The translations under genes and the position numbers were made by a program. Below, in pieces: positions 1 through 45,565 of a stretch of 45,565 nt of DNA. The stretch lies in IMG/VR virus record IMGVR_UViG_3300029121_000010, positions 1 through 45,565 of that record. One strand, written 5' to 3'. The notes under the pieces are model-generated. The model was not told where the DNA came from. It searched no databases and was given only the letters and a program-made list of their open reading frames with translations. Source of the stretch: a virus. The stretch's first letter is position 1. Every line of letters begins with the position of its first letter.

Positions 1-77
1 TGTTTCCGCTGTAATCCATTTTTTATAACCCCACCGTGAAGCATTGCAAACTCATATCCCAACTGTTTGACCTTGTG
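1..77. repeat. terminal direct repeat, identical to 45489..45565 (circular/terminally redundant genome or assembly overlap)
   Basis: Exact 77-nt identity between window start and end. Gene order is continuous across the junction: the stop of 23..901 and the start of 44746..45507 are 3 nt apart inside the repeated block. Confidence 0.9.
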
Positions 78-17785: not shown

Positions 17786-20700
17786 TTATTGTCCGCCCCC
17801 GGCATATCTCCAGATAGAATGGGCCATTGATGCGGCATCACAATTTGATACTAAAATATTATTTGCATAATAGCAACCAGCTCGAACTGTTATATTATAA
17901 ACCCTTTTCTTTGGCTTTCCTGCGTAGTTCTCTTTTAAGGTACTTATCTCGACACCATCGACATATTGTCTGCTCTCTGTGGTCGTTTGGGGTATTAAAT
18001 CTTCTTCCGCAATCGGGACATATTTTAGTAATATGAAGTTTGGCAATGTATTCTTTTTGATGTTTTGAGTGCCAATCTCTCCCCTCTTTTGAGCGATGCC
18101 ACTCTTTGCACATTTCTCTACCTCTTTTATTTGCTTCTTGCATTTCAGGTCTTTTCCAAATTTCAGCGGTTTTTTTGCCATGAAGTTTAGCGTGTTCACT
18201 ACTTGATAAAAGAACCAAATTGCTAAAATCGTTATTATCTTTATTTTCATCTTTGTGGTGAATGTGATAGCCTTTAGGAATTTCTTTTCCCGAATAAAAT
18301 TCATACACAACCCGATGAAGCCGGAATGTTTTTCTTTTTCCGTAAGCAAAGATTTTATTTTCATAATATCCTGTCTTTGGGTTACGATAGTATTTTTTGC
18401 CATTGAACAGTATAAAGATTTTATTTGCCATGAGATTAATTCCTCTATGGTTAATTTACTAACCATAGAATAATCAACATTTTCAAGGCTGTCAAAAGAA
18501 TAATCGTGTGTTGTGTATATTTTGTGGTCTTTAGTTCCGGTTAATCCAATATTATCAATAACCGGCTTCATTCTGCTTGTTGTTCGTGTTATCGGAGAAA
18601 CACCCCAAGGAGTTATGACTAAATCACCAACTTTTAATTCCTCTATATTTTTATCTCCAAAAATTGTGGCGACTTTTGTTCCCGCAACAAAACAAGAATC
18701 GTCGTGCGCGTGCGACATGTCTTCGGCAAACAATGCCGCTTCATTGACTAGATACTGGCTCATTTTATCATCTTTTTTCAATTTTACAAGACCACGATAA
18801 ACATCCCATGAAAGCTCTCTTGTTCTGCCGACCTTGTCCTCTGGGTAGTCATATTCTTTGGGCTTCCAACAAATGGCATTGATGCCGGATTGTATAAGCG
18901 TTTGCTCCAAGCTGATGCCGGATGCTTTGTCTTCAATGTACATAAATGCAGCCGGATTAATTAAGCTGTCGTCCGTCCACTTTTTCCATATCCAGCTCGC
19001 CCTTTCCAAAAGCTCGGGGAATTCCCACTTGCCGACAATCATATCACGCATACGCATCTCTTTACGCAACAGCTCCCAAACTTGAAAACAAGAATAGTCT
19101 GCTGTTACCGTCTTTTTATAGGCGGTATCTGCCGTTATTATTAACTTGCCGTCAATAGGTGTGTTGTCCGGATCATAATAAACCCACCAATCACGTTGGA
19201 TGATGTTTCCTTTTTCGGCTACCGGTGATTGCTGATATTGTGCTTGGAACATGGTATCATTGAATGATATTTCTTTGATACGCTCCGGGGTGTATTGGCT
19301 TGCGATGTTGCATGTGCCGTCCGGTTCAAGCAACGGCTTTATGATGCTGTCAAATTTGTATTGCTCAAGCAAATATCCGGATAAGTCGCCGAGATGGAGC
19401 CTCTGCTGAATGTTAAATATCGGCACGTTACTGTCGTTCAAGCGTGAGAGCAAGGTTTCATCATAATATTTGCGGACTTTTTCGCGCATAACCTCAGATT
19501 GAATATCGGCCGGCTTGTTTGCATCGTCCAGGACTAACGCTCCCGAAAAGGTTGTATTTCCTCTTATTCCGCAATTATGAACCAATATTTGACTTTTGGT
19601 TATAAACAGGTTATTGTTATTCCATAAGGTAACACAATAACTGGGGGCGCTATGATTACAGTTGACAATATTGACTATTTTCCTATTCCCGAATTTAAAG
19701 GGTATTTTATCTCTAAGTGTGGCAAAATTTTCTCTGCTAAAACAAATCGCATTCTTAAACAACGAACCACATATAAAGGGTATAAATCTGTTGAACTTCA
19801 TACCGCCGATAAGAGATACCATTTTTTTGTGCATCGTCTTGTTCTTAAGACTTTTGTCGGAGAATCCTCTCTTGAAACAAGACATCTTAATTCTGACAGG
19901 TCGGATAATAGACTTGAAAACCTTTGTTATGGTACTACCAAGCAAAATACCCTTGATAAATTTGAACAAAACAGAAAATTTCAGAAACTTAACAAAGAGC
20001 TTGCGATAAAGATAGCACAAGACCCCCGTCCATACAAAGAAATTGCCGAAAGTTTTGGTATTTGTTATGGCTCCGTTAGCGACATCAAGTGTGGTTGTGC
20101 GTGGGCGAAAGTAACAGACGGCTTTAGATTTCAAAGAGGAGTAAAAACGGCTGCTGATTATATTTTTGAAAAATTTGGCGATGATGAAATTAAATTTATT
20201 CTTGACAAAAACAATTCTCGCCAATACGTTTCTGAAAAACTCAATATACCTGTTTGGAAGATAAAAAAGATTAGACATTATTTCACTACCCACGGATAAA
20301 AAGTCGGCTCGCCGCTCCTCTCCGTTTTTCAAATAAAAGACGTGGTCAGGCGTGCAGTTTATTTTTTCTCCGTTATCTAGCTCAATCTCCATATAGGGCG
20401 AATTTTCGTTTTTGACATAATCGTATATTGGCTGCAACTCTTTCTGCCTTTTGTCAAAATTATAGCTCCAAACTTTCACGTCTATTTTGTTTTCCACAAT
20501 ATATCCGAGTTTCATAAACCCCTTTTCTGTTAAAACTTCTGTGTTATAGTCAAAACAGCCAAACCCGGTAATGGTTGAACCAATGGATGCAAACAGAATT
20601 TGCCCGCCTTTTGCCGTTATGATGCGTTTGCTGGCGTACACGGCTTTCCCTGTTTCTTTCAGCAGATATTCACGCCAGAAGTCATCAATCGGGTTTTCTT

Positions 20701-21154
20701 CCTTTTCTTCCATGCCAAGCAAGCCGTTGCCGTAGAGTTCTTTGTATATCGGATGCTCTAAAATCTGAGCCACTTCACGGGCAATGTCTGATAGGAGCAT
20801 TTGCGAGAATGATGTATAAATAAAATTACACCTCGGGTTTTTGGTAAGGCAGTAAATGAGCCAATATTTGCAGAGGGTTGTTTTTCCGGCTCGGGGCGGA
20901 ATGTTCATGCATTCGCGGGTTATTCGCAGGTTGTATAGGTCATCAAAAACGTTGAACATATCTTTGTGGATACGGTCCATAATAAAAGGCTTACCCTCAA
21001 GAACTCGGAACATATAACGAAACCAAACTTCAAAACCGGCATCCAGCAATGTCTTGCCGAGATATTCCCGATTGATTTCGCCCGATAAAACGGTATTATT
21101 TTTTTGTTCCTTTTTTGGACTTGCTTGTTTTTTCTGTTTTTGGTTGGCCATCAT
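17786..21154 (-). CDS. terL: terminase large subunit precursor interrupted by two inteins
   Basis: Walker A motif NIPPRAGKTT. The exteins of 199, 293 and 18 aa sum to about 510 aa, a normal TerL size. Two insertions begin with Cys (CFDYNTEVL.. and CFVAGTKVAT..), contain TxxH (block B) and end ..ILVHN|C and ..ILVSN|C. Confidence 0.8.
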   Translation of the reverse strand: MMANQKQKKQASPKKEQKNNTVLSGEINREYLGKTLLDAGFEVWFRYMFRVLEGKPFIMDRIHKDMFNVFDDLYNLRITRECMNIPPRAGKTTLCKYWLIYCLTKNPRCNFIYTSFSQMLLSDIAREVAQILEHPIYKELYGNGLLGMEEKEENPIDDFWREYLLKETGKAVYASKRIITAKGGQILFASIGSTITGFGCFDYNTEVLTEKGFMKLGYIVENKIDVKVWSYNFDKRQKELQPIYDYVKNENSPYMEIELDNGEKINCTPDHVFYLKNGEERRADFLSVGSEIMSNLFYLPNRYIEFFRNVLARIVFVKNKFNFIIAKFFKNIISSRFYSSLKSKAVCYFRPRTTTLDVANGAITNTKTFGNFFVWTGVLCYLYRKLFVKFLKFSVLFKFIKGILLGSTITKVFKSIIRPVRIKMSCFKRGFSDKSLKNKTMHKKMVSLIGGMKFNRFIPFICGSLFKNAICFSRENFATLRDKIPFKFGNRKIVNIVNCNHSAPSYCVTLWNNNNLFITKSQILVHNCGIRGNTTFSGALVLDDANKPADIQSEVMREKVRKYYDETLLSRLNDSNVPIFNIQQRLHLGDLSGYLLEQYKFDSIIKPLLEPDGTCNIASQYTPERIKEISFNDTMFQAQYQQSPVAEKGNIIQRDWWVYYDPDNTPIDGKLIITADTAYKKTVTADYSCFQVWELLRKEMRMRDMIVGKWEFPELLERASWIWKKWTDDSLINPAAFMYIEDKASGISLEQTLIQSGINAICWKPKEYDYPEDKVGRTRELSWDVYRGLVKLKKDDKMSQYLVNEAALFAEDMSHAHDDSCFVAGTKVATIFGDKNIEELKVGDLVITPWGVSPITRTTSRMKPVIDNIGLTGTKDHKIYTTHDYSFDSLENVDYSMVSKLTIEELISWQIKSLYCSMAKNTIVTQRQDIMKIKSLLTEKEKHSGFIGLCMNFIREKKFLKAITFTTKMKIKIITILAIWFFYQVVNTLNFMAKKPLKFGKDLKCKKQIKEVEKCAKSGIAQKRGEIGTQNIKKNTLPNFILLKYVPIAEEDLIPQTTTESRQYVDGVEISTLKENYAGKPKKRVYNITVRAGCYYANNILVSNCDAASMAHSIWRYAGGGQ
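17843..18694 (-). mobile_element. intein 2 (284 aa) in the terminase nuclease domain
   Basis: Block A CFVAGTKVATIFGDKNIEELKVGDLV; block B TGTKDHKIYT; blocks F/G VYNITVRAGCYYANNILVSN followed by Cys+1. It is inserted after SHAHDDS. Confidence 0.75.
17895..18431 (-). CDS. HNH homing endonuclease encoded in an alternative reading frame inside intein 2
   Basis: HRVVYEFYSGKEIPKGYHIHHKDENKDNNDFSNLVLLSSSEHAKLH is an HNH motif. The frame differs from the terminase frame (coordinate ends mod 3 differ), and the terminase frame stays open over the same 537 nt. Confidence 0.7.
   Translation of the reverse strand: MANKIFILFNGKKYYRNPKTGYYENKIFAYGKRKTFRLHRVVYEFYSGKEIPKGYHIHHKDENKDNNDFSNLVLLSSSEHAKLHGKKTAEIWKRPEMQEANKRGREMCKEWHRSKEGRDWHSKHQKEYIAKLHITKICPDCGRRFNTPNDHREQTICRWCRDKYLKRELRRKAKEKGL
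19574..20557 (-). mobile_element. intein 1 (328 aa) in the terminase ATPase domain
   Basis: Block A CFDYNTEVLTEKGF; block B INCTPDHVFYL; blocks F/G SYCVTLWNNNNLFITKSQILVHN followed by Cys+1. The central ~200 aa are low-complexity and are the antisense of a plus-strand HNH gene. Confidence 0.75.
19652..20299 (+). CDS. HNH_3/NUMOD4-type homing endonuclease encoded antisense within intein 1
   Basis: GYFISKCGKIFS...YKSVELHTADKRYHFFVHRLVLKTFVGESSLETRHLNSDRSDNRLENLCYGTTKQN. It has a GGGGG RBS. This is the only convincing plus-strand gene, and it lies exactly between Hint blocks B and F. Confidence 0.75.
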   Translation: MITVDNIDYFPIPEFKGYFISKCGKIFSAKTNRILKQRTTYKGYKSVELHTADKRYHFFVHRLVLKTFVGESSLETRHLNSDRSDNRLENLCYGTTKQNTLDKFEQNRKFQKLNKELAIKIAQDPRPYKEIAESFGICYGSVSDIKCGCAWAKVTDGFRFQRGVKTAADYIFEKFGDDEIKFILDKNNSRQYVSEKLNIPVWKIKKIRHYFTTHG

Positions 21155-21569
21155 TTAATACTTCTTGAATATGCTTGATGATATTGTTTTGGTCTTGCTC
21201 GGTAACAAAGACGGTTGATTGCCCAAGGTTTCCGCTTATGACCTGCTCCGGCATCTCTCCGGCCGTATCTCGCACAAACTGCGCGGCTTTGACATCTTGC
21301 TCTTTTATCGCCTTGTCAAACATAGCCATTGCCAAAACCATACCATTGGTTAAATCTTCCGGATTGATTTCGGGGAATAGCTGTTTTGACTTTGCGGCGA
21401 TGACTGCGTGCGGTTTCATTTCAAGCAAGGCCTGCGTGAGTTCTTTCAGGCTTTTCTTTCGTCTTCTGGCATCGGCTGATGCTTTTCCGCCAAGAGCTCC
21501 AAAGATACGGGCTTCTTCTGGGGTGTAGTTCTCTCTCTTTTTAGTGCCTCTTCGCATAATTTTCTCCAA
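21096..21569 (-). CDS. terS: putative terminase small subunit
   Basis: 157-aa ORF with a basic N-terminus, lying immediately upstream of and overlapping the TerL start. Assignment is by position only. Confidence 0.35.
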   Translation of the reverse strand: MEKIMRRGTKKRENYTPEEARIFGALGGKASADARRRKKSLKELTQALLEMKPHAVIAAKSKQLFPEINPEDLTNGMVLAMAMFDKAIKEQDVKAAQFVRDTAGEMPEQVISGNLGQSTVFVTEQDQNNIIKHIQEVLNDGQPKTEKTSKSKKGTKK

Positions 21570-21595
21570 AATTACAATATAAACCCGATAAGATT

Positions 21596-22078
21596 TTACA
21601 AAATATTCAGGTGCATGATGTCTGACACGGCGACAAAACCGAGTTTTTGATGTGCTCTTTTGCTGGCTTTATTCACCTTGAACACACCGGACACAATCCG
21701 CTTGTATCCAATTTGCTGGGTGAATAGCTTCAAACGTTCAATCATTTCTTTATACACGCCCTTTCTTCTGAACTCTGGCATTGTGTAAACGTGGCAAGCC
21801 CAGACTTCCTTGGTCGGGTGTCCGAAACCCACCGAGATAAACCCGATGACGCGGTTGTTAATATCTTGGGCGACAACATAGATTTGCGTTTCGTCTGCAA
21901 AGTCTTCTTTAGGCATGTTGCAGATTTGGGATATTTCTTCAAGATATGCCGCTTTGAGCTGATTTATCTGCGCCAGAGTGTTTTTGTCTTTGATGTTGTT
22001 AAATATTGAAGCCTTAAATATCAAAGGTTCTTCAAGTGCGTATTTGTCAGGATTGACATTTTCTTCTTTTTCAAGCAT
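21596..22078 (-). CDS. GNAT family N-acetyltransferase
   Basis: VGFISVGFGH...MPEFRRKGVYKEMIERL...NKASKRAHQKLGF is an acetyl-CoA-binding GNAT core. The likely start is MLEKEE at 22078, overlapping the TGA of the upstream ORF. Confidence 0.6.
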   Translation of the reverse strand: MLEKEENVNPDKYALEEPLIFKASIFNNIKDKNTLAQINQLKAAYLEEISQICNMPKEDFADETQIYVVAQDINNRVIGFISVGFGHPTKEVWACHVYTMPEFRRKGVYKEMIERLKLFTQQIGYKRIVSGVFKVNKASKRAHQKLGFVAVSDIMHLNIL

Positions 22079-22265
22079 CTTTTTCCCCTTTATTAAAGAT
22101 TTCATCAAATCGTTCTTTGGATAGTCCAACGGAAACAAGGGAAGCCGACCCCGTGGTCAGATCCCCTTGTTCTTCGTTTTCATACTTTCTTTCATCGTAT
22201 TCTTTTAAGTCTTCAACAAATCGGAAAGTTGTTTTTCCGTTCTTTTTGACCTCAACAAACGGCAT
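22071..22265 (-). CDS. hypothetical protein
   Basis: 64-aa ORF translationally coupled to the GNAT gene. Confidence 0.35.
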   Translation of the reverse strand: MPFVEVKKNGKTTFRFVEDLKEYDERKYENEEQGDLTTGSASLVSVGLSKERFDEIFNKGEKDA

Positions 22266-22268
22266 TTT

Positions 22269-23345
22269 TTATCTCTCCCAAGGATGTTCGTTATCTATGA
22301 CACCAAATAATCCCCTCTTGCATAATACCGCAAATTTTGGATTTTGCAAACCGAATGCTCCAATAACTCTTGTAGGACACAAATCTGTTTTGTTTGATTT
22401 TTTTTCAAGAAGTTGGCCGTATTTGTCTTTTATAAGCACTGTTGCGTTTATTTGTGCCTTGCCAATGCAGCAGCTCAGGCGACATTCTGCGGAGAATTTG
22501 AACGGATGCGTTGATTCTGTCAATTCAAAAATTGCTGATGCTCTGGCGACAATGTTCAAAGCAAGGTCTGCCTTGGTGCCGTCCTTTGTCCATGGGCTAC
22601 CGCCCCCGATGGGGGAGTTTCCGCCATAGAAGTCAACCGCCAACTTGCGGCCGGTGGTTCCGCAATCTCCCATGGATGAATGCTTGATGTATTTTCCGGT
22701 GCCGTTGATGATTGTTACTGTGGTGGGGGTTATGTTCTTCTTTCCTGCCCATGCTTCAACTGTGCGTTTTATCTTTGTAAACTCTTTTTTGTCTTTGGCC
22801 GGAATGGCAACGATGATTTCTTCAATCATATCGTCATCATCGAGTGTGATTTGGGTTTTGATGTCCAGACCGCCGATGCCGTCTTTCTTTGCTTTGTTAT
22901 ACAAGATGTTGTTCAGTTCTTTGGCAAGGAAATGATCCAAAGGCATATAATTTGTGTCTGGGTTGTTTTCCGCATAGCCGAAGAATATGCCTTGGTCGCC
23001 CCATCCGTCACGATTAACCCCTTTAGCGATGTCCGGGCTTTGGGTAGAGAAAAGAACACGCACTTGTAAATCATCCGAGCAAATTGTATTTTCCTTGCCC
23101 CATTTCTCGGCATATTTCTTTGTATAACCGATTTCCTCAACGGCTTCTTTTACCCATTTTTCGGCAGAAATGCTGGCTTTTGTGGTGATTTCCCCACCAA
23201 GGGTTACAAACTTGTCTTTTATTTGCACTTCCAACGCATATCTGGCATTTTGGTCTTGCTCAAGAATGCGGTCAAGAATATACTCGCTTATGTAATCTGC
23301 GATTTTGTCCGGGTGTCCAAGTGATACGTATTCGCTTGTTCTCAT
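22269..23345 (-). CDS. metK: S-adenosylmethionine synthetase (MetK homologue)
   Basis: Diagnostic MetK motifs: SLGHPDKIAD, GGEITT, QSPDI, GWGDQG, SMGDCGTTGRKLAVDFYGG, GGGSPWTKDGTKAD. Confidence 0.85.
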   Translation of the reverse strand: MRTSEYVSLGHPDKIADYISEYILDRILEQDQNARYALEVQIKDKFVTLGGEITTKASISAEKWVKEAVEEIGYTKKYAEKWGKENTICSDDLQVRVLFSTQSPDIAKGVNRDGWGDQGIFFGYAENNPDTNYMPLDHFLAKELNNILYNKAKKDGIGGLDIKTQITLDDDDMIEEIIVAIPAKDKKEFTKIKRTVEAWAGKKNITPTTVTIINGTGKYIKHSSMGDCGTTGRKLAVDFYGGNSPIGGGSPWTKDGTKADLALNIVARASAIFELTESTHPFKFSAECRLSCCIGKAQINATVLIKDKYGQLLEKKSNKTDLCPTRVIGAFGLQNPKFAVLCKRGLFGVIDNEHPWER

Positions 23346-23360
23346 TTCATCATCTCCAAC

Positions 23361-23564
23361 TTATCTTCTTCTTATTTCGTGAATTTCGTTATAAAGTTCA
23401 AGCCATTTTCTGGCTCTTTGCATCACAATGTCCGGCGGATTAACCGAGCCTTCCTCATATTTGATGACAGACGGCTCGCTCCGTCTAAGGCAAACCGCAG
23501 CAAAGGCTTTTCGGCCCATCTGCATTGTTTTTCGGATTTTTAAGATTTCTTGTCCTCGTGTCAT
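23361..23564 (-). CDS. small HTH protein (Cro-like candidate)
   Basis: 67-aa ORF resembling a short XRE-type HTH, downstream of an intergenic region with inverted promoter-like repeats. Confidence 0.4.
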   Translation of the reverse strand: MTRGQEILKIRKTMQMGRKAFAAVCLRRSEPSVIKYEEGSVNPPDIVMQRARKWLELYNEIHEIRRR

Positions 23565-23601
23565 TTTCTTTCTTTCCTGAATTAAAAAAATATGGCGGTT
23601 G

Positions 23602-23690
23602 GTATAATTTAGCCTTATGTAATAGTTTGTGGCACAGCGTTTGCGTTTCCGATTATACCGTTATTAGGTTGCCGCCATCCAACCTTTGGA
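23602..23690. promoter_or_regulatory. pair of inverted promoter-like elements ATGGCGG..GGTATAAT (divergent)
   Basis: The plus strand has ATGGCGGTTGGTATAAT (23602..23618), which reads as an extended -10 (TGgTATAAT). The minus strand has ATGGCGGcaacctaataacGGTATAAT (23690..23661), pointing toward the Cro-like gene. Confidence 0.4.
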
Positions 23691-23703
23691 GCTGCCACGG
23701 CTG

Positions 23704-24120
23704 TCAGATATGGTGAAACCTACCGTCTTCGGTCTTTTCCCATTTCCTTTTTCGGTTCTTATTCATTTTTTGTATTATTGCCAAATCTATAACTGACAAA
23801 ATATCCAGGGTTGCGTTGTTAAGATAATTATTTTCAATGGAAATTCCGATTTTACTGTCAAATCGGCGAAGACCGGCACAAACTATCAAAATATCGGCTA
23901 TTTCTTCAAATAAAGCAGCTTTATCTTTTTTACCAACTTTAAGAGATTCACAGATTTCTTCTTCAAGTTTGGCAAGCTGTCCGGCAAGGGTTGCATCCGG
24001 AAAGGTTTTCTCATGCCATCTTTTTATGGAGTTTAACCTATTATCAATATTTTCCAAAATAAGTGCTTTTGAAAGTTTATCTAATGGTTTTTGTTTTTTG
24101 TTTTTGAAAAAATTAAACAT
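23704..24120 (-). CDS. MazG-like nucleotide pyrophosphohydrolase
   Basis: KLEEEICESLKVGKKDKAALFEEIADILIVCAGL has the EExxE/D...EE..D pattern of all-alpha NTP pyrophosphatases. Confidence 0.5.
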   Translation of the reverse strand: MFNFFKNKKQKPLDKLSKALILENIDNRLNSIKRWHEKTFPDATLAGQLAKLEEEICESLKVGKKDKAALFEEIADILIVCAGLRRFDSKIGISIENNYLNNATLDILSVIDLAIIQKMNKNRKRKWEKTEDGRFHHI

Positions 24121-24129
24121 AATTAACTC

Positions 24130-24417
24130 CTAGATATTCAATGCTTTGCGGTATGTATCAAGCAAAATTTCTTGTTCATCTCGGTCAGCGGCATTCATCT
24201 TACGAAGCTTAATGCATGCACGCATGGCTTTTGTATCAAATCCGGCTCCTTTGGCTTCGGCAAAGATATCTCTGATATCTGAAGCGATACCGGCTTTTTC
24301 TTCTTCAAGGCGTTCAACTCTTTCAATCAAAGAACGCAAGCGGTCAACAGCAATGCCGCCGATGATGTTGTTTCTTTCATCGTCTTCTTTGGTAATTAAA
24401 GTTGTTTGTTCGCTCAT
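24130..24417 (-). CDS. GapR-like DNA-binding protein (DUF2312)
   Basis: IAVDRLRSLIERVERLEEEKAGIASDIRDIFAEAKGAGFDTKAMRACIKLRKMNAADRDEQEILLDTYRKAL closely matches the remembered DUF2312/GapR consensus. Confidence 0.65.
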   Translation of the reverse strand: MSEQTTLITKEDDERNNIIGGIAVDRLRSLIERVERLEEEKAGIASDIRDIFAEAKGAGFDTKAMRACIKLRKMNAADRDEQEILLDTYRKALNI

Positions 24418-24418
24418 A

Positions 24419-24616
24419 TTACATTCCTCTCTTTAGTTTTTTATACAAGGCTCTGGTGCATGTATCTTTCATTACAACCGTTCCGCACATAATCGGCTTT
24501 GGCAGATTAGGAAGTTCAATAAGATGTTTTTTTGTGAGAGTATATTCAACTTCGACATCTGTGGTGGCCATTTGCTTTGCAAGCTTGCGGAGTTTCTTTG
24601 CTTTTTTAGAGTTCAT
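24419..24616 (-). CDS. small basic protein
   Basis: The likely start is MNSKKAKKLRKLAK, with an AAGGAAA RBS downstream of the 24658 promoter. Confidence 0.4.
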   Translation of the reverse strand: MNSKKAKKLRKLAKQMATTDVEVEYTLTKKHLIELPNLPKPIMCGTVVMKDTCTRALYKKLKRGM

Positions 24617-24657
24617 TTCTTTGTTTCCTTTTTTAGTTACCATAAAAACATAAAAAT

Positions 24658-24684
24658 ATTATAACCCTTTATTGTAATTGTCAA
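24658..24684 (-). promoter_or_regulatory. sigma70-like promoter TTGACA-15nt-TATAAT with the ATTACAA element
   Basis: Minus-strand TTTGACAATTACAATAAAGGGTTATAAT. Confidence 0.5.
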
Positions 24685-25223
24685 ACATAAATTTGTTTTA
24701 TGACATTATTTTTGTAATCCGGGATTTTTTTTGTTTTACATCCGCTTTTTATCAAATGGATGATTTTCTTTGTACTTTCATCGGTTAAATCGACTTTAAG
24801 ACAAATTTCTTCATCATTCATGCCGGAGTTAATTAAATTTTTTATTTGCTTGTATATCTTGTTTTTTTGCTCTCCCATGAGGTATTTATCTATTACGGCT
24901 TCCTGCACCTCGATGCTTTTGAGTTTTGCGTTGACAACGTTCGCAATGACCATACACTCTGGCATCTGTTTTGCTTTTTTTATCGCATACATGATTGTGG
25001 TATGGTTCCTTTTGAATTTTGAACCAATGTGTGGATAACTAAAGCCCCTCTCATAAAGCACATAATAGCAAACAAATTTCGGCAAAACATACTTGTTTTC
25101 GTAATTTGAGAAAATTTTCTTGTAATCCGGCAACTGCATTGCTTCTCCAACTGCCTGAATAAGCTCTTGCGTTTTTCGGTCAAATTCTTCAAATTGCGTT
25201 GGCTTCTTTCCTCTCTCCATCAT
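24681..25223 (-). CDS. DnaA domain-IV-like DNA-binding protein
   Basis: VLPKFVCYYVLYERGFSYPHIGSKFKRNHTTIMYAIKKAKQM aligns with the DnaA C-terminal box-binding helix-turn-helix (..LPEIG..FGGRDHTTVLHA.RKI). Confidence 0.6.
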   Translation of the reverse strand: MMERGKKPTQFEEFDRKTQELIQAVGEAMQLPDYKKIFSNYENKYVLPKFVCYYVLYERGFSYPHIGSKFKRNHTTIMYAIKKAKQMPECMVIANVVNAKLKSIEVQEAVIDKYLMGEQKNKIYKQIKNLINSGMNDEEICLKVDLTDESTKKIIHLIKSGCKTKKIPDYKNNVIKQIYV

Positions 25224-25244
25224 TTATTTGCTCCCCCTGTTGTT

Positions 25245-26465
25245 TCAAAACAAACTTAATTGCCCTTTGGTGTCGGTTGTTTCAGGCATAAGTAAATTTT
25301 TGAATATTGCTTCCAAAACGTCAACCACAATGCTATTTCCGGCAAGCTTGTATAGTTGCGAGTTTGATATGCCATGCAAGCGGTCAAACTGCTCATCTTT
25401 CACACCCATCAATCGCCAGCATTCCCTTGGGGTTAGCTTGCGGATGCGGTATCCCTCGGTTATTTTCGGTTCTAAACCGCCACCCTGACAAGTATTAAGA
25501 GCCGGACTACAACCATCTGAACTATAAACTCTACCTCTTTGCGGATTATCCCAATTTCCACTATCTACAATATTACCCACTTGAATAACTTTAGGTTCAA
25601 TGACATAATTGTCTTTTTGAACGCTTGTAAGAGTGTTTGTGCAACCATCATACTTTACCTCTAATCGTTGCTCGGTCGGAATTCCTACAGTACGGTCGCT
25701 TGGATTGTCTGGATTTCTGCCCCGGCTCGCTGCGATCACAGGCTCGGATACCAATTGCGGACCGTGTGCGTCTCTCGCACATAAAGTTTTGGCTATGTCC
25801 TTTGTGTTCAGTCTGTCTCTTTCCTGGGTAAACGTTGATTTTAGAAAAGAAGATACAGCGGTGGCGGATAGATAAAATTTCTCATCGACATTATCCTCCA
25901 ACATATCTTTTAAGCGTTTTTCAAGGGGTTTCGGGTTTGGGAATAGATATTGACCACCGCCAAGGATAGACACGCAAAAAATACGCTCCCGATTCTGCGG
26001 TATGCCGTAGTCTTTGGCATTAAGTACTTTGTAATAGTTTGTATATCCCATGTCCTCAAGTACTTTAAACCATTCATTGAAGTTATGGCAGTGCTTTTTG
26101 CTTAGAAGGTTCTTCACGTTTTCCATTAAAAGAAACTTAGGCTTAACAGCTCGGATAATACGCTCGCATTCCCACAATAGGCTTGAACGTGTGCCACTAC
26201 CCTTATCGCCACCGGCTTGTTTACCTGCCGATGAGAAGTCTTGGCAAGGCGTTGAGTATGTAATCATATCAAAATATGGCAGTTTTGATTCGTCTATGGT
26301 ATATATATCGCCGTAGTTCTTTGTTTCTCCGTGCAGTTGCATATAAGCCTGACTTGCGTATTTATCAAACTCGGCAATCTCTGAATAAACCTCTATGCCC
26401 AAATTTTTCAAAGCCAATGCTTGGCTTCCATATCCGGCACAAAGTTCTAATAATCTTATTTTCAT
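25245..26465 (-). CDS. DNA (cytosine-5) methyltransferase
   Basis: Motif I LELCAGYGS, motif IV STPCQDFSSAG and motif VI ENVKNL. Confidence 0.9.
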   Translation of the reverse strand: MKIRLLELCAGYGSQALALKNLGIEVYSEIAEFDKYASQAYMQLHGETKNYGDIYTIDESKLPYFDMITYSTPCQDFSSAGKQAGGDKGSGTRSSLLWECERIIRAVKPKFLLMENVKNLLSKKHCHNFNEWFKVLEDMGYTNYYKVLNAKDYGIPQNRERIFCVSILGGGQYLFPNPKPLEKRLKDMLEDNVDEKFYLSATAVSSFLKSTFTQERDRLNTKDIAKTLCARDAHGPQLVSEPVIAASRGRNPDNPSDRTVGIPTEQRLEVKYDGCTNTLTSVQKDNYVIEPKVIQVGNIVDSGNWDNPQRGRVYSSDGCSPALNTCQGGGLEPKITEGYRIRKLTPRECWRLMGVKDEQFDRLHGISNSQLYKLAGNSIVVDVLEAIFKNLLMPETTDTKGQLSLF

Positions 26466-26480
26466 CTCCTACTTCTCCCT

Positions 26481-27152
26481 TTATCTCATCATCAATGGCC
26501 GACCGCTTCGCTTGCGGAAATTTTCAAACTGCTTGGCAATGAAGCACCAATCCACCTCTTTGCCGTCTTTGTTCTTCACAAGCCAGTTTTGGACGGCATT
26601 GATTATCTGCGGCCCATAACTCTCGGCATAGGGTTTGATGTTTCGATTGTCCAACTTAAAACTAAAACTTTTATTAATTAAAAATTTACTGTTACTTAAA
26701 AACTCAAAATCATCGGGATAATCAAGAAAATGGTTTTCTTTTTCTTTTTCTTTATATATTTCTTTTTCTTTATCTTTTAAACTATTTAAATTAACAGTAA
26801 CAGTAGGCATCGTTTCGCATTGCGTGTTTTTAGGTTCGCATACGTTCGTATGCGTTTGCATGCGTTCGCATACGTTCGCATCATCTTTTTGTTGACGGGA
26901 TTTTTCCCATCTTTCCTTGGCTATGCGTGAATTTGCTCTTGATTTTTCACTCCATTTTTGGATTCCCTCGCCGAATTTTTTGGCAATGAACCGCCATACA
27001 CCCTTTTCGGATGGCTCATCAAGCATCATCTCATTGTCTAGCATGCGAAGAAGATTTTTGAATATAATGCCGGCATCCTCATTTGATATTTCTTCAATGA
27101 GGTCTTTCCAATCGCTATAAATTACAGCTGTTCTTTGTTTTCCGGTTGACAT
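26481..27152 (-). CDS. putative replication initiator / replisome organiser with intragenic origin
   Basis: 223-aa ORF with a strong AGGAGA RBS. Its central region is encoded by six tandem 10-bp iterons and is followed by a very AT-rich stretch, an arrangement like lambda O. Confidence 0.4.
   Translation of the reverse strand: MSTGKQRTAVIYSDWKDLIEEISNEDAGIIFKNLLRMLDNEMMLDEPSEKGVWRFIAKKFGEGIQKWSEKSRANSRIAKERWEKSRQQKDDANVCERMQTHTNVCEPKNTQCETMPTVTVNLNSLKDKEKEIYKEKEKENHFLDYPDDFEFLSNSKFLINKSFSFKLDNRNIKPYAESYGPQIINAVQNWLVKNKDGKEVDWCFIAKQFENFRKRSGRPLMMR
26811..26880. repeat. tandem 10-bp iterons (consensus ACGTTCGCAT) with embedded CGCATACG/CGTATGCG inverted repeats
   Basis: Plus-strand cgtttcgcat..ggttcgcat acgttcgtat gcgtttgcat gcgttcgcat acgttcgcat, about six to seven units at helical periodicity. 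An AT-rich region at 26640..26800 lies adjacent. Confidence 0.6.
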
Positions 27153-27316
27153 GCTCTATTCTCCTGACTTTCTAACTCACTCAATAAATCTCTTTCCAAA
27201 AAACGGAATTCTTTAGAAATGGTTTCTAAAACGACAATTGGAGCAGAGATTTCTTTCAATCTTTGCTCCAATCGCTTGTAGTGTCGTGATATGTTTTTTT
27301 GTATAATATGTTTCAT
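27122..27316 (-). CDS. hypothetical protein
   Basis: 64-aa ORF. Confidence 0.3.
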   Translation of the reverse strand: MKHIIQKNISRHYKRLEQRLKEISAPIVVLETISKEFRFLERDLLSELESQENRACQPENKEQL

Positions 27317-27384
27317 TTTTTCCCTCTCTATCGACTTTCTAAATACAAAATGATGTTATGCACAACTTTTTTAATTTGCAAGTA

Positions 27385-27777
27385 TTATTTTGGTTGAATA
27401 TTGTTTTTGTGGAAATAATCCACCACATCGGACACGCTTTTTGCCACGATATAGTGGTGTCCGGGGAGCTTTTCAATGGTGGCTTGGAATTCTTTTTGCT
27501 CATCACTCTGCGTTCCGGCTCGCTCATCAATGACCATGCGTTTGTATCGCTCGCTCCAACGATACGTTGCCGGCTTTTTGCACTCGATGCAGACAACTCC
27601 ATTTTTTATAAAAACTATTAAATCTGGTGAGCCGGATTTATATCCAAGCCTATTCATCAATATCTGTGTTTTTTGGTTTTTTATAAGACCTGCACCTGTT
27701 GATGTGTGCAAAAAACCATAAAACTTTAGATAATTTACTATACTTATTTGCACTTTATCTTCTAAATATTTATTCAT
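27385..27777 (-). CDS. VRR-NUC domain nuclease
   Basis: GSPDLIVFIKNGVVCIECKKP is the PD-(D/E)xK core characteristic of VRR-NUC. Confidence 0.65.
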   Translation of the reverse strand: MNKYLEDKVQISIVNYLKFYGFLHTSTGAGLIKNQKTQILMNRLGYKSGSPDLIVFIKNGVVCIECKKPATYRWSERYKRMVIDERAGTQSDEQKEFQATIEKLPGHHYIVAKSVSDVVDYFHKNNIQPK

Positions 27778-39932: not shown

Positions 39933-40018
39933 ACGGGAGGGCGGGATTCGAACCCACGACCAACAGACACGTTGTTAACTCTGGCCAGAAAAAGCTCTAC
40001 CACTGAGCTACGCTCCCG
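39933..40018 (-). tRNA. aberrant tRNA-like gene: canonical D-arm and T-arm, non-canonical anticodon region (possible GTG/His-like loop)
   Basis: Minus strand CGGGAGC-GTA-GCTCAGTGGTAGAGC ... GTGGGTTCGAATCCCGC-CCTCCCG-T. The acceptor pairs 6/7. About 13 extra nt (TTTTTCTGGCCAGAG) separate the D-stem from the only 5-bp stem/7-nt loop candidate, TAACA-ACGTGTC-TGTTG. Confidence 0.4.
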
Positions 40019-40160
40019 ATAAGTGTTAATTCTTCCGTGTCATCTCAAAAAAAGAAACACTTTCACCCTCAAGGCCGCTTAAGACAATTAACAAGACTAG
40101 CGGTTCTGCACTTTCAAAAAGGTAGCCAAAGGCAGAAGTAACATCCGGCTACAATGTTGG

Positions 40161-40232
40161 TTGCAGGAGATGGGATTGCACCATCGACCTCTTGGTTATG
40201 AACCAAGCGAGCTACTACTGCTCTATCCTGCC
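40161..40232 (-). tRNA. tRNA-Met/Ile2-like (anticodon CAT)
   Basis: Minus strand GGCAGGA-TA-GAGCAGTAGTAGCTC-G-CTTGG-TTCATAA-CCAAG-AGGTC-GATGG-TGCAATC-CCATC-TCCTGCA-A. It is 72 nt with a cloverleaf, a 1:72 mismatch and an unusual T-loop. Confidence 0.55.
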
Positions 40233-44745: not shown

Positions 44746-45507
44746 CTATTCCGGCGGTTGAGATGGTACTGGTCCACCCGGTCCGGGGTTATATTTATGC
44801 GTGTGTCCTTTTCCGCTTATGCCGGCAGCCACAACATCCGTTTGTCCGGTAATTGTTCCGGTGGTTGTTTGGTCGCCGGTGTGGCTGATGTTTCCGGTTA
44901 TTGTTTCATTTCCGGTATGCTCAACATCTCCAACAATGGTTATTTTTTCATTTGCTAAAACTATACTAACTCCACCCTGTTTTAATGTCAAACTAGTGTT
45001 TGATAAGCTAAACAATGAGCTTTTGTCGGCGTTGCGTATTTCCACCGCATCAGAGCTATAGTTTGGAATTTTTACCTTTGTGATAATTCCGGGGAAGCAC
45101 ATGGCATCGGTTTCATCAAAACACCGAATTGTGCAAGTTTCCGGTGTTGGTCCGTCTGAGGGAGCTGATATTTGTCCGGTGATTAAAAAGTTGTCCAAGG
45201 CTCTCTCGGCAAATATAAGCGTGCATTTGTCGCCTGTTCTATAAGGCATCGTTGTTCCAAGGCCCAATCCCTCGCTCCATGCCAAAGCCATAGGGATGTT
45301 TGTGATTAATGGCCGGTTGATGTATCTGACCAGCTTGGTGTTTGGATCAACAATTTTTATCTGAATTGCCGGAATGGCAGACACCACCTGATTGGCATAG
45401 TCCACGCTTTGGATGATGGCCGGTATTGATGTGTGAATGTCTGCCGCTTTGCGGTCAAACTGCATATTAAATTCTATGCCGGCATTTTTGTTTCCGCTGT
45501 AATCCAT
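44746..45507 (-). CDS. baseplate central spike (gpV-like)
   Basis: C-terminal beta-helix repeats (TGNETITGNISHTGDQTTTGTITGQTD) and an apex motif GKGHTHKYNPGPGGP with HxH, as in gpV/gp138-type spikes. Confidence 0.55.
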   Translation of the reverse strand: MDYSGNKNAGIEFNMQFDRKAADIHTSIPAIIQSVDYANQVVSAIPAIQIKIVDPNTKLVRYINRPLITNIPMALAWSEGLGLGTTMPYRTGDKCTLIFAERALDNFLITGQISAPSDGPTPETCTIRCFDETDAMCFPGIITKVKIPNYSSDAVEIRNADKSSLFSLSNTSLTLKQGGVSIVLANEKITIVGDVEHTGNETITGNISHTGDQTTTGTITGQTDVVAAGISGKGHTHKYNPGPGGPVPSQPPE

Positions 45508-45565
45508 TTTTTATAACCCCACCGTGAAGCATTGCAAACTCATATCCCAACTGTTTGACCTTGTG
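45489..45565. repeat. terminal direct repeat, second copy (identical to 1..77)
   Basis: Exact 77-nt identity with the window start. Confidence 0.9.

Follow-up and report, generated by a model that had tools for sequence, protein, structure and literature searches.

Genes for S-adenosylmethionine (SAM) synthetase, metK, are among the most often annotated auxiliary genes in gut viromes. Among the Ca. Heliusvirales gut phages, 67% of genomes have the cytosine methyltransferase gene dcm and 58.9% have metK (PMC11283538), and in a faecal-transplant phageome the same two genes make up 22.8% and 8.6%, respectively, of all auxiliary genes. A survey of viral organosulfur genes found that viral MetK proteins have conserved motifs, are under purifying selection, are expressed and cluster apart from bacterial MetK, and it described Streptococcus suis phages that carry both metK and dcm. 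Phage T3 is also known to act on the SAM pool: its SAM lyase cleaves SAM and inhibits host MetK, which defeats type I restriction–modification and BREX. Our literature search found no biochemical characterization or genetic test of a phage methionine adenosyltransferase (MAT), or of the idea that such an enzyme supplies methylation. Here, we analyze a gene cluster at positions 21096..26465 of the 45,565-nt viral record IMGVR_UViG_3300029121_000010 (the whole record is called the window below), which encodes a short MetK, a GNAT-family acetyltransferase, and a C5 cytosine DNA methyltransferase. The MetK is most likely an active SAM synthetase, and we lean towards the view that it supplies SAM for methylation of the phage's own DNA. 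A sequence-only reading of the same DNA had implied that the combination was novel; the surveys do not bear this out, with metK and dcm already among the commonest phage auxiliary genes and often co-occurring.

The window MetK has the fold and active-site residues of SAM synthetases

The phage MetK matches the three MAT domains of Pfam above their gathering scores (S-AdoMet_synt_N, 1.6e-25; M, 1.5e-11; C, 2e-12) and the family phrog_1569 over its full length (residues 2–357, 3.5e-83). Among PDB entries, 45 distinct MAT sequences were matched, the best being the Campylobacter jejuni enzyme (4le5, 3.8e-43), and E. coli MetK was matched at 3.9e-39. An AlphaFold2 model, based on an alignment with 62 homologues, reached a predicted local distance difference test (pLDDT) score of 91.2 and a predicted template modeling (pTM) score of 0.92. 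When this model was compared with solved MATs from bacteria, plants, and humans using Foldseek, template modeling (TM) scores of 0.79–0.86 were obtained at E values of about 1e-30, again with 4le5 as the best fold match.

For a residue-level comparison, the phage protein was aligned to E. coli MetK; the reference sequence used matches the PDB chain of the E. coli enzyme save for the substitutions in that chain. The positions chosen are those which we take, from E. coli structures, to have catalytic, metal-binding, triphosphate-binding, or methionine-ligand roles. All 17 positions checked are kept in the phage protein, the sole change being F230 to Tyr, and H14, D16, K17, E42, E55, Q98, I102, D118, D163, K165, D238, R244, K245, K265, K269, and D271 (E. 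coli numbering) are identical. Sixteen positions were tallied over 62 members of the clade and are invariant or nearly so. These roles are consistent with the MetK motif list published in the organosulfur survey, and the signature motifs are GHPDK, GxGDQG, GDxGxTGRK, and GGGxxxxKD. The ratio of nonsynonymous to synonymous substitution rates (dN/dS) of 0.17–0.24 indicates purifying selection on the gene.

The domains, the fold, and the conserved residues thus agree with the sequence-only reading, which had recognized MetK by its hallmark motifs and had proposed an alignment as a check for loss of catalytic residues; none is lost among the 17 positions. We conclude that open reading frame (ORF) 22269..23345 is most likely a catalytically active SAM synthetase, as predicted from its sequence and model, and that it belongs to a short, mostly virus-borne clade.

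Short MetK proteins form a virus-associated clade with chromosomal members

Thousands of MetK homologues were found in a set of 5.8 billion proteins. The best 120 are all short (331–388 aa, median 347.5) and at least 50% identical to the window protein. Among GenBank phages, 133 records contain a MetK homologue, mostly streptococcal prophages in which it is annotated as SAM synthetase. The window MetK is at most 45% identical to anything in this collection, and 32–34% identical to the streptococcal prophage enzymes. Matches to MetK from Helicobacter "phages" were set aside as probably host genes, since a survey of H. pylori prophages describes their integration beside the host's own metK. The window MetK therefore belongs to a virus-associated short clade (PHROG 1569; ~330–365 aa), which is not exclusively viral.

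Chromosomal members of the clade were found in several bacteria. In Ca. Deianiraea vastatrix (L054), the gene is surrounded by an amino-acid-kinase-family gene, CarD, and a Kinase-PPPase-family gene, and in an alphaproteobacterial metagenome-assembled genome (MAG; L040/L090) it is part of a gidB-GNAT-metK-parA-parB cluster. A further chromosomal locus (L088) places it beside AccB/AccC, MsrA, and GroES/EL, and in all three cases the housekeeping assignments of the neighbors are Pfam-backed. In five gut alphaproteobacterial loci (L057, L061, L066, L067, and L069) the neighbors resemble, by sequence reading alone, methylthioadenosine/S-adenosylhomocysteine (MTA/SAH) nucleosidase or SpoU methyltransferase. 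The presence of short MetK among housekeeping genes of bacterial chromosomes supports the short form as a working SAM synthetase, and transfer between these bacteria and phages may have occurred in the history of the clade.

The divergence of the clade and its score under the cut-off of the cellular equivalog model, detailed further below, could fit a non-catalytic homologue that hijacks or poisons host MetK by forming hetero-oligomers; MAT active sites lie at the dimer interface, which makes mixed oligomers conceivable. A decoy would need none of the catalytic and ligand residues, yet all those checked are conserved and invariant in the clade, and close relatives stand in housekeeping contexts in bacterial chromosomes. 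We therefore regard hijacking as highly improbable.

Short MetK genes are linked to DNA methyltransferase genes in related phages

To describe gene linkage, we used 37 IMG/VR loci with a related MetK; four are cut off too near the gene, which leaves 33 informative loci. A DNA methyltransferase gene is adjacent to metK or one gene away in 22 of the 33, and within ~2 kb in 24. The most frequent arrangement, seen in 16 loci, has a ParB-N6_N4 or N6_N4 methyltransferase directly upstream of MetK, often with a stop/start overlap. In five loci, the methyltransferase is separated from MetK by one Bro-N gene; in one locus, it lies directly downstream; and in two loci, a C5 methyltransferase is located 1.9 kb upstream. 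The closest relatives (L001–L003) keep the gene order of the window; one of them (L003) has a D12-class Dam in place of the C5 methyltransferase, and in it an N6_N4 methyltransferase abuts MetK. Altogether, the MetK-linked loci show four distinct methyltransferase architectures, a pattern that functional coupling would be expected to produce, rather than inheritance as a single block.

Eight homologues looked up through the protein database served as independent samples. In one (P0021), two ParB methyltransferases abut MetK and are followed by terminase and portal genes; in another (P0071), the order is ParB methyltransferase, Bro-N, MetK; and in a third (P0048), three N6_N4 methyltransferases lie 2–4 kb upstream of MetK. 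Two of the eight are cellular contexts. The order ParB methyltransferase, MetK, terminase furthermore recurs in genomes and MAGs of Lentisphaerae/Victivallales and Elusimicrobiaceae.

The position of MetK relative to the packaging genes is also recurrent. In most related phage loci, MetK closes the DNA-metabolism module and stands immediately before the terminase genes, and homologues of the small-terminase-like gene of the window are found downstream of MetK in 13 related loci. A place just upstream of the terminase fits action on DNA that is about to be packaged. A GapR-like gene, which the window also contains, lies upstream of a methyltransferase–MetK pair in an unrelated phage contig (L083 332..556).

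Two further features of these loci were recorded. An amino-acid:DNA transferase, a thymidine-hypermodification enzyme (PF18724, 5.4e-11), is encoded 1.3 kb downstream of MetK in one locus (L017 8369..9412), and another locus (L035) is nearly identical to it in this region. Twelve of the related phage loci have a gene of ~82 aa whose sequence overlaps MetK at its 3' end (e.g., L004 6990..7238, L013 6987..7241, L016 2458..2691), forming an operon of ParB methyltransferase, MetK, and mini-transporter; the three members scanned match the last repeat of the PnuC/NMN-transporter family alone, at E values of 1e-6 to 5e-5, near the gathering score. The window does not contain this gene.

The window encodes a solitary C5 methyltransferase

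The C5 methyltransferase of the window has the readable motifs of its family, namely an FxGxG-like motif (CAGYG), PCQ, ENV, QNRER, TPRE, and GNS; the conserved set looked for comprised motifs I, IV (PCQ), VI (ENV), VIII (QNRER), IX, and X, and all were present. It scores above the cut-off of TIGR00675 (224.8 versus 100.65 bits) and matches PADLOC models of type II and orphan methyltransferases. Its description as Dcm-type in the sequence-only reading holds insofar as it is a generic C5 enzyme; it is not an orthologue of Dcm, because it reaches only 78.2 bits with the Dcm subfamily model PRK10458 (cut-off 710), and M.HhaI, the best PDB match (8.5e-44), is nearer to its catalytic domain than are the Dcm-like chains 3lx6 and 3me5 (~1e-14). 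Family scans and tblastn with ParB-methyltransferase queries found no second DNA methyltransferase in the window, and no cognate restriction enzyme was recognized beside the C5 gene among the window ORFs scanned.

The orthologue in one close relative (L001 325..2718, 797 aa) is split by an intein exactly at the catalytic PCQ (STP/C...VHN/CQDFS, with slashes at the junctions), and the endonuclease region of this intein resembles the LAGLIDADG type. The window copy is intein-free.

A possible role of MetK in DNA self-methylation

We propose that, during infection and late in replication, the phage MetK would convert host methionine and ATP into SAM. It would thereby keep the pool of methyl donor high for the phage's own C5 methyltransferase. 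With that supply, the methyltransferase could complete the methylation of new phage genomes shortly before they are packaged, and the progeny would be protected from restriction in the next host. This role in SAM supply for anti-restriction self-methylation, of which gene linkage is the part examined here, is somewhat favored by the genomic data; what speaks for it is that, in other phages, short-clade MetK adjoins several unrelated kinds of DNA methyltransferase. It presumes that the enzyme is active, that SAM becomes limiting during infection, and that the benefit arises through DNA methylation and anti-restriction. SAM supply for self-methylation was one of three readings offered from the sequence alone, and the methyltransferase linkage supports it; for the other two, a counter to SAM depletion and hijacking of MetK, no support was found.

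Several observations weigh against this proposal. In the window itself, the methyltransferase is not adjacent to MetK: 1.9 kb, five genes, and a 139-nt gap lie between them, and the gap could hold a promoter that divides MetK from the methyltransferase block. Many of the 37 related loci are near-duplicates or belong to one phage lineage, so that the counts overstate independence, and in three of the eight independent homologues, all on large phage contigs, a methyltransferase is absent within 5 kb. DNA methyltransferases are, moreover, common in phages anyway. The enzyme has its own deviations. As the sequence-only reading had stated, it is shorter and more divergent than cellular MetK, with 358 aa versus 384 aa in E. 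coli (26 fewer) and 36% identity over aligned columns, and its score with the NCBIfam metK equivalog model TIGR01034, 184.7 bits over the full length, is below the cut-off of 309.4. This shortfall is explained by the divergence of the short clade, and it weakens the notion of an orthologue of cellular MetK, not that of a protein working as a MAT. Compared with E. coli MetK, five residues are deleted between the QSPDI and GxGDQG motifs, a region that presumably contains the active-site gating loop, and the C-terminus is ~14 residues shorter; a 9-residue deletion near residue 205 and small insertions are further changes. Beside catalytic residues, the clade has invariant swaps (FSGKD to PWTKD, KVDRS to KADLA). 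Together, the motif-flanking changes, the deletion, and the short C-terminus may alter kinetics or specificity.

The shortened loop before GxGDQG, the PWTKD and KADLA changes, and the missing C-terminus can also be combined into a more elaborate idea, in which short viral MetK is a specialized enzyme paired with the methyltransferase (dimeric, and less product-inhibited or escaping inhibitors), while the products of the two genes that follow it, orf64 and GNAT, add a further step, for instance by acetylating a host protein or a compound related to methionine or SAM. We attach little credence to this idea.

MetK could instead act as a general metabolic booster that sustains the activated methyl cycle of the host (RNA and protein methylation, polyamines, autoinducer 2 (AI-2), and sulfur flux) and has no particular link with DNA methylation. 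Virome surveys class viral metK with cysteine, methionine, and organosulfur metabolism and report conserved motifs, purifying selection, and detected expression; in Streptococcus agalactiae, a metK of prophage origin influences aggregation and the glycocalyx (PMC8223999); and the three large-phage contexts with no nearby methyltransferase fit such a role. Such a role leaves unexplained why MetK so frequently abuts or overlaps varied DNA methyltransferase genes. Among the window ORFs scanned there is no other methionine- or SAM-cycle gene, and no integrase was seen, so that a role in lysogenic conversion is unsupported here. On this evidence, a booster role appears unlikely, if worth keeping in view.

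A third possibility is that MetK makes up for SAM lost through destruction or sequestration, whether a host defence or a competing phage with a SAM lyase is the cause. SAM is a known battleground, as illustrated by the T3 lyase, which both cleaves SAM and inhibits host MetK (PDB 8bb1), and a divergent MetK might escape such inhibitors. Our literature search turned up no SAM-depleting host defence, and additional SAM would aid rather than hinder SAM-dependent restriction systems. PADLOC defence models gave no match for MetK, orf64, GNAT, or the small ORFs of the cluster, so that MetK, orf64, and GNAT are without a defence or anti-defence family assignment, and the linkage to methyltransferases would be left unexplained. 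We judge counter-defence to be very unlikely, and SAM supply for self-methylation remains the role that we prefer.

orf64 and the GNAT gene are lineage-specific

Downstream of MetK lie two genes, orf64 and a gene for a GNAT-family acetyltransferase. The orf64 product is 57–87% identical among the window and L001–L003 and has a dN/dS of 0.13–0.17; it matches no family among Pfam, PHROG, and PADLOC profiles. The GNAT gene had first been listed as 21596..22138, starting at a TTG. An ATG at 22078, preceded by an AGGGG ribosome-binding site and giving 160 aa, is the more likely start and is in line with the public gene call. The protein matches Acetyltransf_1 above the cut-off (3.7e-12), and its gene is under purifying selection (dN/dS 0.09). 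Its motif A (R/Q-x-x-G-x-G/A) reads RRKGVY and is deviant at the last position; R..KGVY is invariant in the relatives.

We searched for a substrate of this protein in NCBIfam, the PDB, an AlphaFold2 model compared using Foldseek, and the 5.8-billion-protein set; naming one was rejected, because the searches returned generic GNATs or close relatives. Weak, scattered matches in NCBIfam and the PDB included ArsN1, AAC(6'), RimI, PaiA, PAT/YncA, and polyamine acetyltransferase, those in the PDB at 1e-5 or weaker. None of the subfamily models (ArsN1/PAT/YncA, AAC(6'), RimI, PaiA/SpeG) was matched above its cut-off, the best being ArsN1a with 36.8 versus 170 bits. The structural model, built with seven sequences (pLDDT 75), shows a generic GNAT fold with TM scores of 0.5–0.7 to many GNATs and no discriminating match.

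Assignment to the GNAT family, as first read from the sequence, is thus confirmed; a conserved partnership with MetK is not, as the gene is present in only 5 of the 37 related phage loci. It is adjacent to the MetK region in the three closest of these and lies 2–3 kb upstream of MetK in the other two (L026 and L029), and the homologues in the 5.8-billion-protein set are close relatives alone. GNAT is therefore, as judged from its distribution, a lineage-restricted accessory gene; orf64 and GNAT are lineage-specific and translationally coupled to each other, outside the conserved function of MetK.

The compact arrangement could also mean that MetK, orf64, and GNAT form one functional unit, in which GNAT might, for example, acetylate MetK itself, a host protein, or a small molecule (an analogue of methionine or a polyamine derived from SAM). 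Little or no space separates the three genes, all are under purifying selection, and they are syntenic in L001–L003; in addition, the weak GNAT matches include acetyltransferases of methionine analogues (ArsN1, PAT, YncA) and of polyamines. On alphaproteobacterial chromosomes, two loci (L040/L090 and L065) likewise have a GNAT gene as the immediate upstream neighbor of short MetK, which is a lead rather than evidence: as a candidate homologue, the L090 protein was rejected since it has no significant similarity to the window GNAT, and the other is weakly similar to it. The rarity of the gene in related phages, its adjacency in just the closest three, the narrow reach of its homologues, and family and fold matches that point to no one substrate all speak against a unit, and we consider it improbable.

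Gene order of the cluster

On the minus strand, the cluster runs from the C5 methyltransferase through the DnaA_C-like gene, a small ORF, GapR, a weakly assigned MazG-like gene, the 139-nt gap, a 67-aa ORF, MetK, orf64, and GNAT to the small-terminase-like and large terminase genes (Table 1). The methyltransferase is upstream of MetK on the same strand, and the separation of about 2 kb given in the sequence-only reading is matched by the 1.9 kb found; that reading had missed orf64. The 139-nt gap lies just upstream of the 67-aa ORF, which has no match among Pfam, PHROG, and PADLOC profiles.

Table 1. Genes of the MetK cluster and other listed features of the window
Feature	Position	Strand	Evidence or remark
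C5 cytosine DNA methyltransferase, 406 aa	25245..26465	−	Pfam DNA_methylase 9.1e-72
DnaA C-terminal-like helix-turn-helix protein, 180 aa	24681..25223	−	Pfam Bac_DnaA_C 3.4e-09; kept in L001–L003
Small ORF, 74 aa as listed, 65 aa in public gene call	24419..24643	−	Weak phrog_36059 match; kept in L001–L003
GapR-like DNA-binding protein, 95 aa	24130..24417	−	Pfam GapR_DNA-bd 1.6e-32
Possible MazG-like nucleotide pyrophosphohydrolase, 138 aa (weak assignment)	23704..24120	−	Pfam dATP-dGTP_PPHyd 7.4e-4, below gathering score
67-aa ORF	23361..23564	−	15 nt upstream of MetK; kept in L001–L003 and L026
MetK, short-form methionine adenosyltransferase (SAM synthetase), 358 aa	22269..23345	−	Three Pfam MAT domains
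orf64, 64 aa, conserved	22071..22265	−	Between MetK and GNAT
GNAT-family acetyltransferase, 160 aa	21596..22078	−	Pfam Acetyltransf_1 3.7e-12
Small-terminase-like gene	21096..21557	−	phrog_2412 1.8e-13; first packaging-module gene, directly downstream of cluster
HNH endonuclease, 222 aa	27774..28442	−	phrog_374 3e-66; replication module; paralogue of next
HNH endonuclease, 222 aa	32262..32930	−	phrog_374 1.4e-64; replication module; paralogue of previous
Two tRNA genes	39933..40018 and 40158..40232	−	One tRNA-Met; other tRNA-like, 86 nt

Co-transcription of MetK with GNAT, asserted from the sequence alone, is plausible: the stop of MetK is followed after 3 nt by the start of orf64, and the stop of orf64 overlaps the start of GNAT by 8 nt. 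The tight junctions speak for it; confirmation did not come from a promoter and terminator scan of 20800–27600, where counts equaled those in shuffled sequence, and the consensus used may not be the host's promoter type.

The phage genome and its selfish elements

The window begins and ends with identical 77-base sequences (1..77 and 45489..45565), and this overlap of the termini points to a phage genome that is circular and complete, at ~45.5 kb. Its genes are laid out almost entirely on the minus strand and include terminase, portal, tail, lysis, RecT/exonuclease, and homing-endonuclease genes, which identify a tailed phage; the metK gene was thus rightly called phage-encoded. The same MetK protein is also encoded on a 45,543-base contig of a metagenome assembly record of the European Nucleotide Archive (ENA; ZHAN15-1_SAMEA2737792). 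A nucleotide search with positions 21000–27000 against 50,697 GenBank phage records gave no match, and a scan of representative genomes, aimed at the host, found no relative above 62% identity. The GapR gene and the nearest cellular short MetK proteins hint at, and do not establish, a host among the Alphaproteobacteria. For the 86-nt tRNA-like gene, ARAGORN gave no definite identity and a two-base "gg" anticodon.

The large terminase gene (17786..21154, minus strand, 1122 aa) contains two inteins; the intein-free homologue in L003 has 513 aa, and that in L001 has one intein at another site. Inside intein 1 of the window terminase, an HNH_3/NUMOD4 homing endonuclease gene is encoded antisense (19652..20299, plus strand) and codon-aligned with the terminase frame. 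None of its 25 Leu and Ser codons is TTA, CTA, or TCA (P ~2e-3), and the terminase frame thereby stays open. The terminase intein of L001 has the same antisense layout, with none of these three codons among 36 (P ~1e-4), and the two non-intein HNH paralogues of the window use TTA freely. A published survey describes antisense endonucleases of the LAGLIDADG and VSR-like types within inteins and does not list an antisense HNH enzyme (bioRxiv 10.1101/2025.01.02.630785). With its inteins and HNH paralogues, the phage is unusually rich in selfish elements.

Comparison with known systems

The linkage to methyltransferases and the position before the packaging genes argue that short phage metK should be read as belonging to an epigenetic self-protection module, not under sulfur and methionine metabolism, where surveys file it. 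Within this well-populated class, the window is one more, sequence-divergent example. It resembles the viral metK auxiliary metabolic genes already described (PHROG 1569; Streptococcus Javan, S. suis, and S. agalactiae prophages; Ca. Heliusvirales) in its short MetK, its DNA-metabolism setting in a tailed phage (such genomes often have dcm as well), its conserved catalytic motifs, and purifying selection. It differs from them in that its lineage is divergent in sequence, at no more than 45% identity to GenBank phages, in that orf64 and GNAT follow MetK, and in having, instead of a ParB-N6_N4 methyltransferase that abuts MetK, a C5 methyltransferase at a distance of 1.9 kb.

Cellular MetK, as in E. 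coli and C. jejuni (4le5), has the same three-domain fold and catalytic residues, whereas the phage form is 26 residues shorter than the E. coli enzyme, has two deletions and a truncated C-terminus, and scores below the TIGR01034 cut-off. Phage orphan methyltransferases with an anti-restriction function are similar in that the C5 enzyme is solitary, lies in a replication module, and matches orphan-methyltransferase models; the window phage is unlike them in co-encoding the synthetase of the methyl donor, and any protective role of its methyltransferase is a prediction. Finally, the T3 SAM lyase offers a parallel in that a phage manipulates the SAM pool of its host in the context of restriction–modification. 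The two proteins are unrelated and their effects are opposed: T3 destroys SAM and inhibits MetK, whereas the window phage appears to make SAM.

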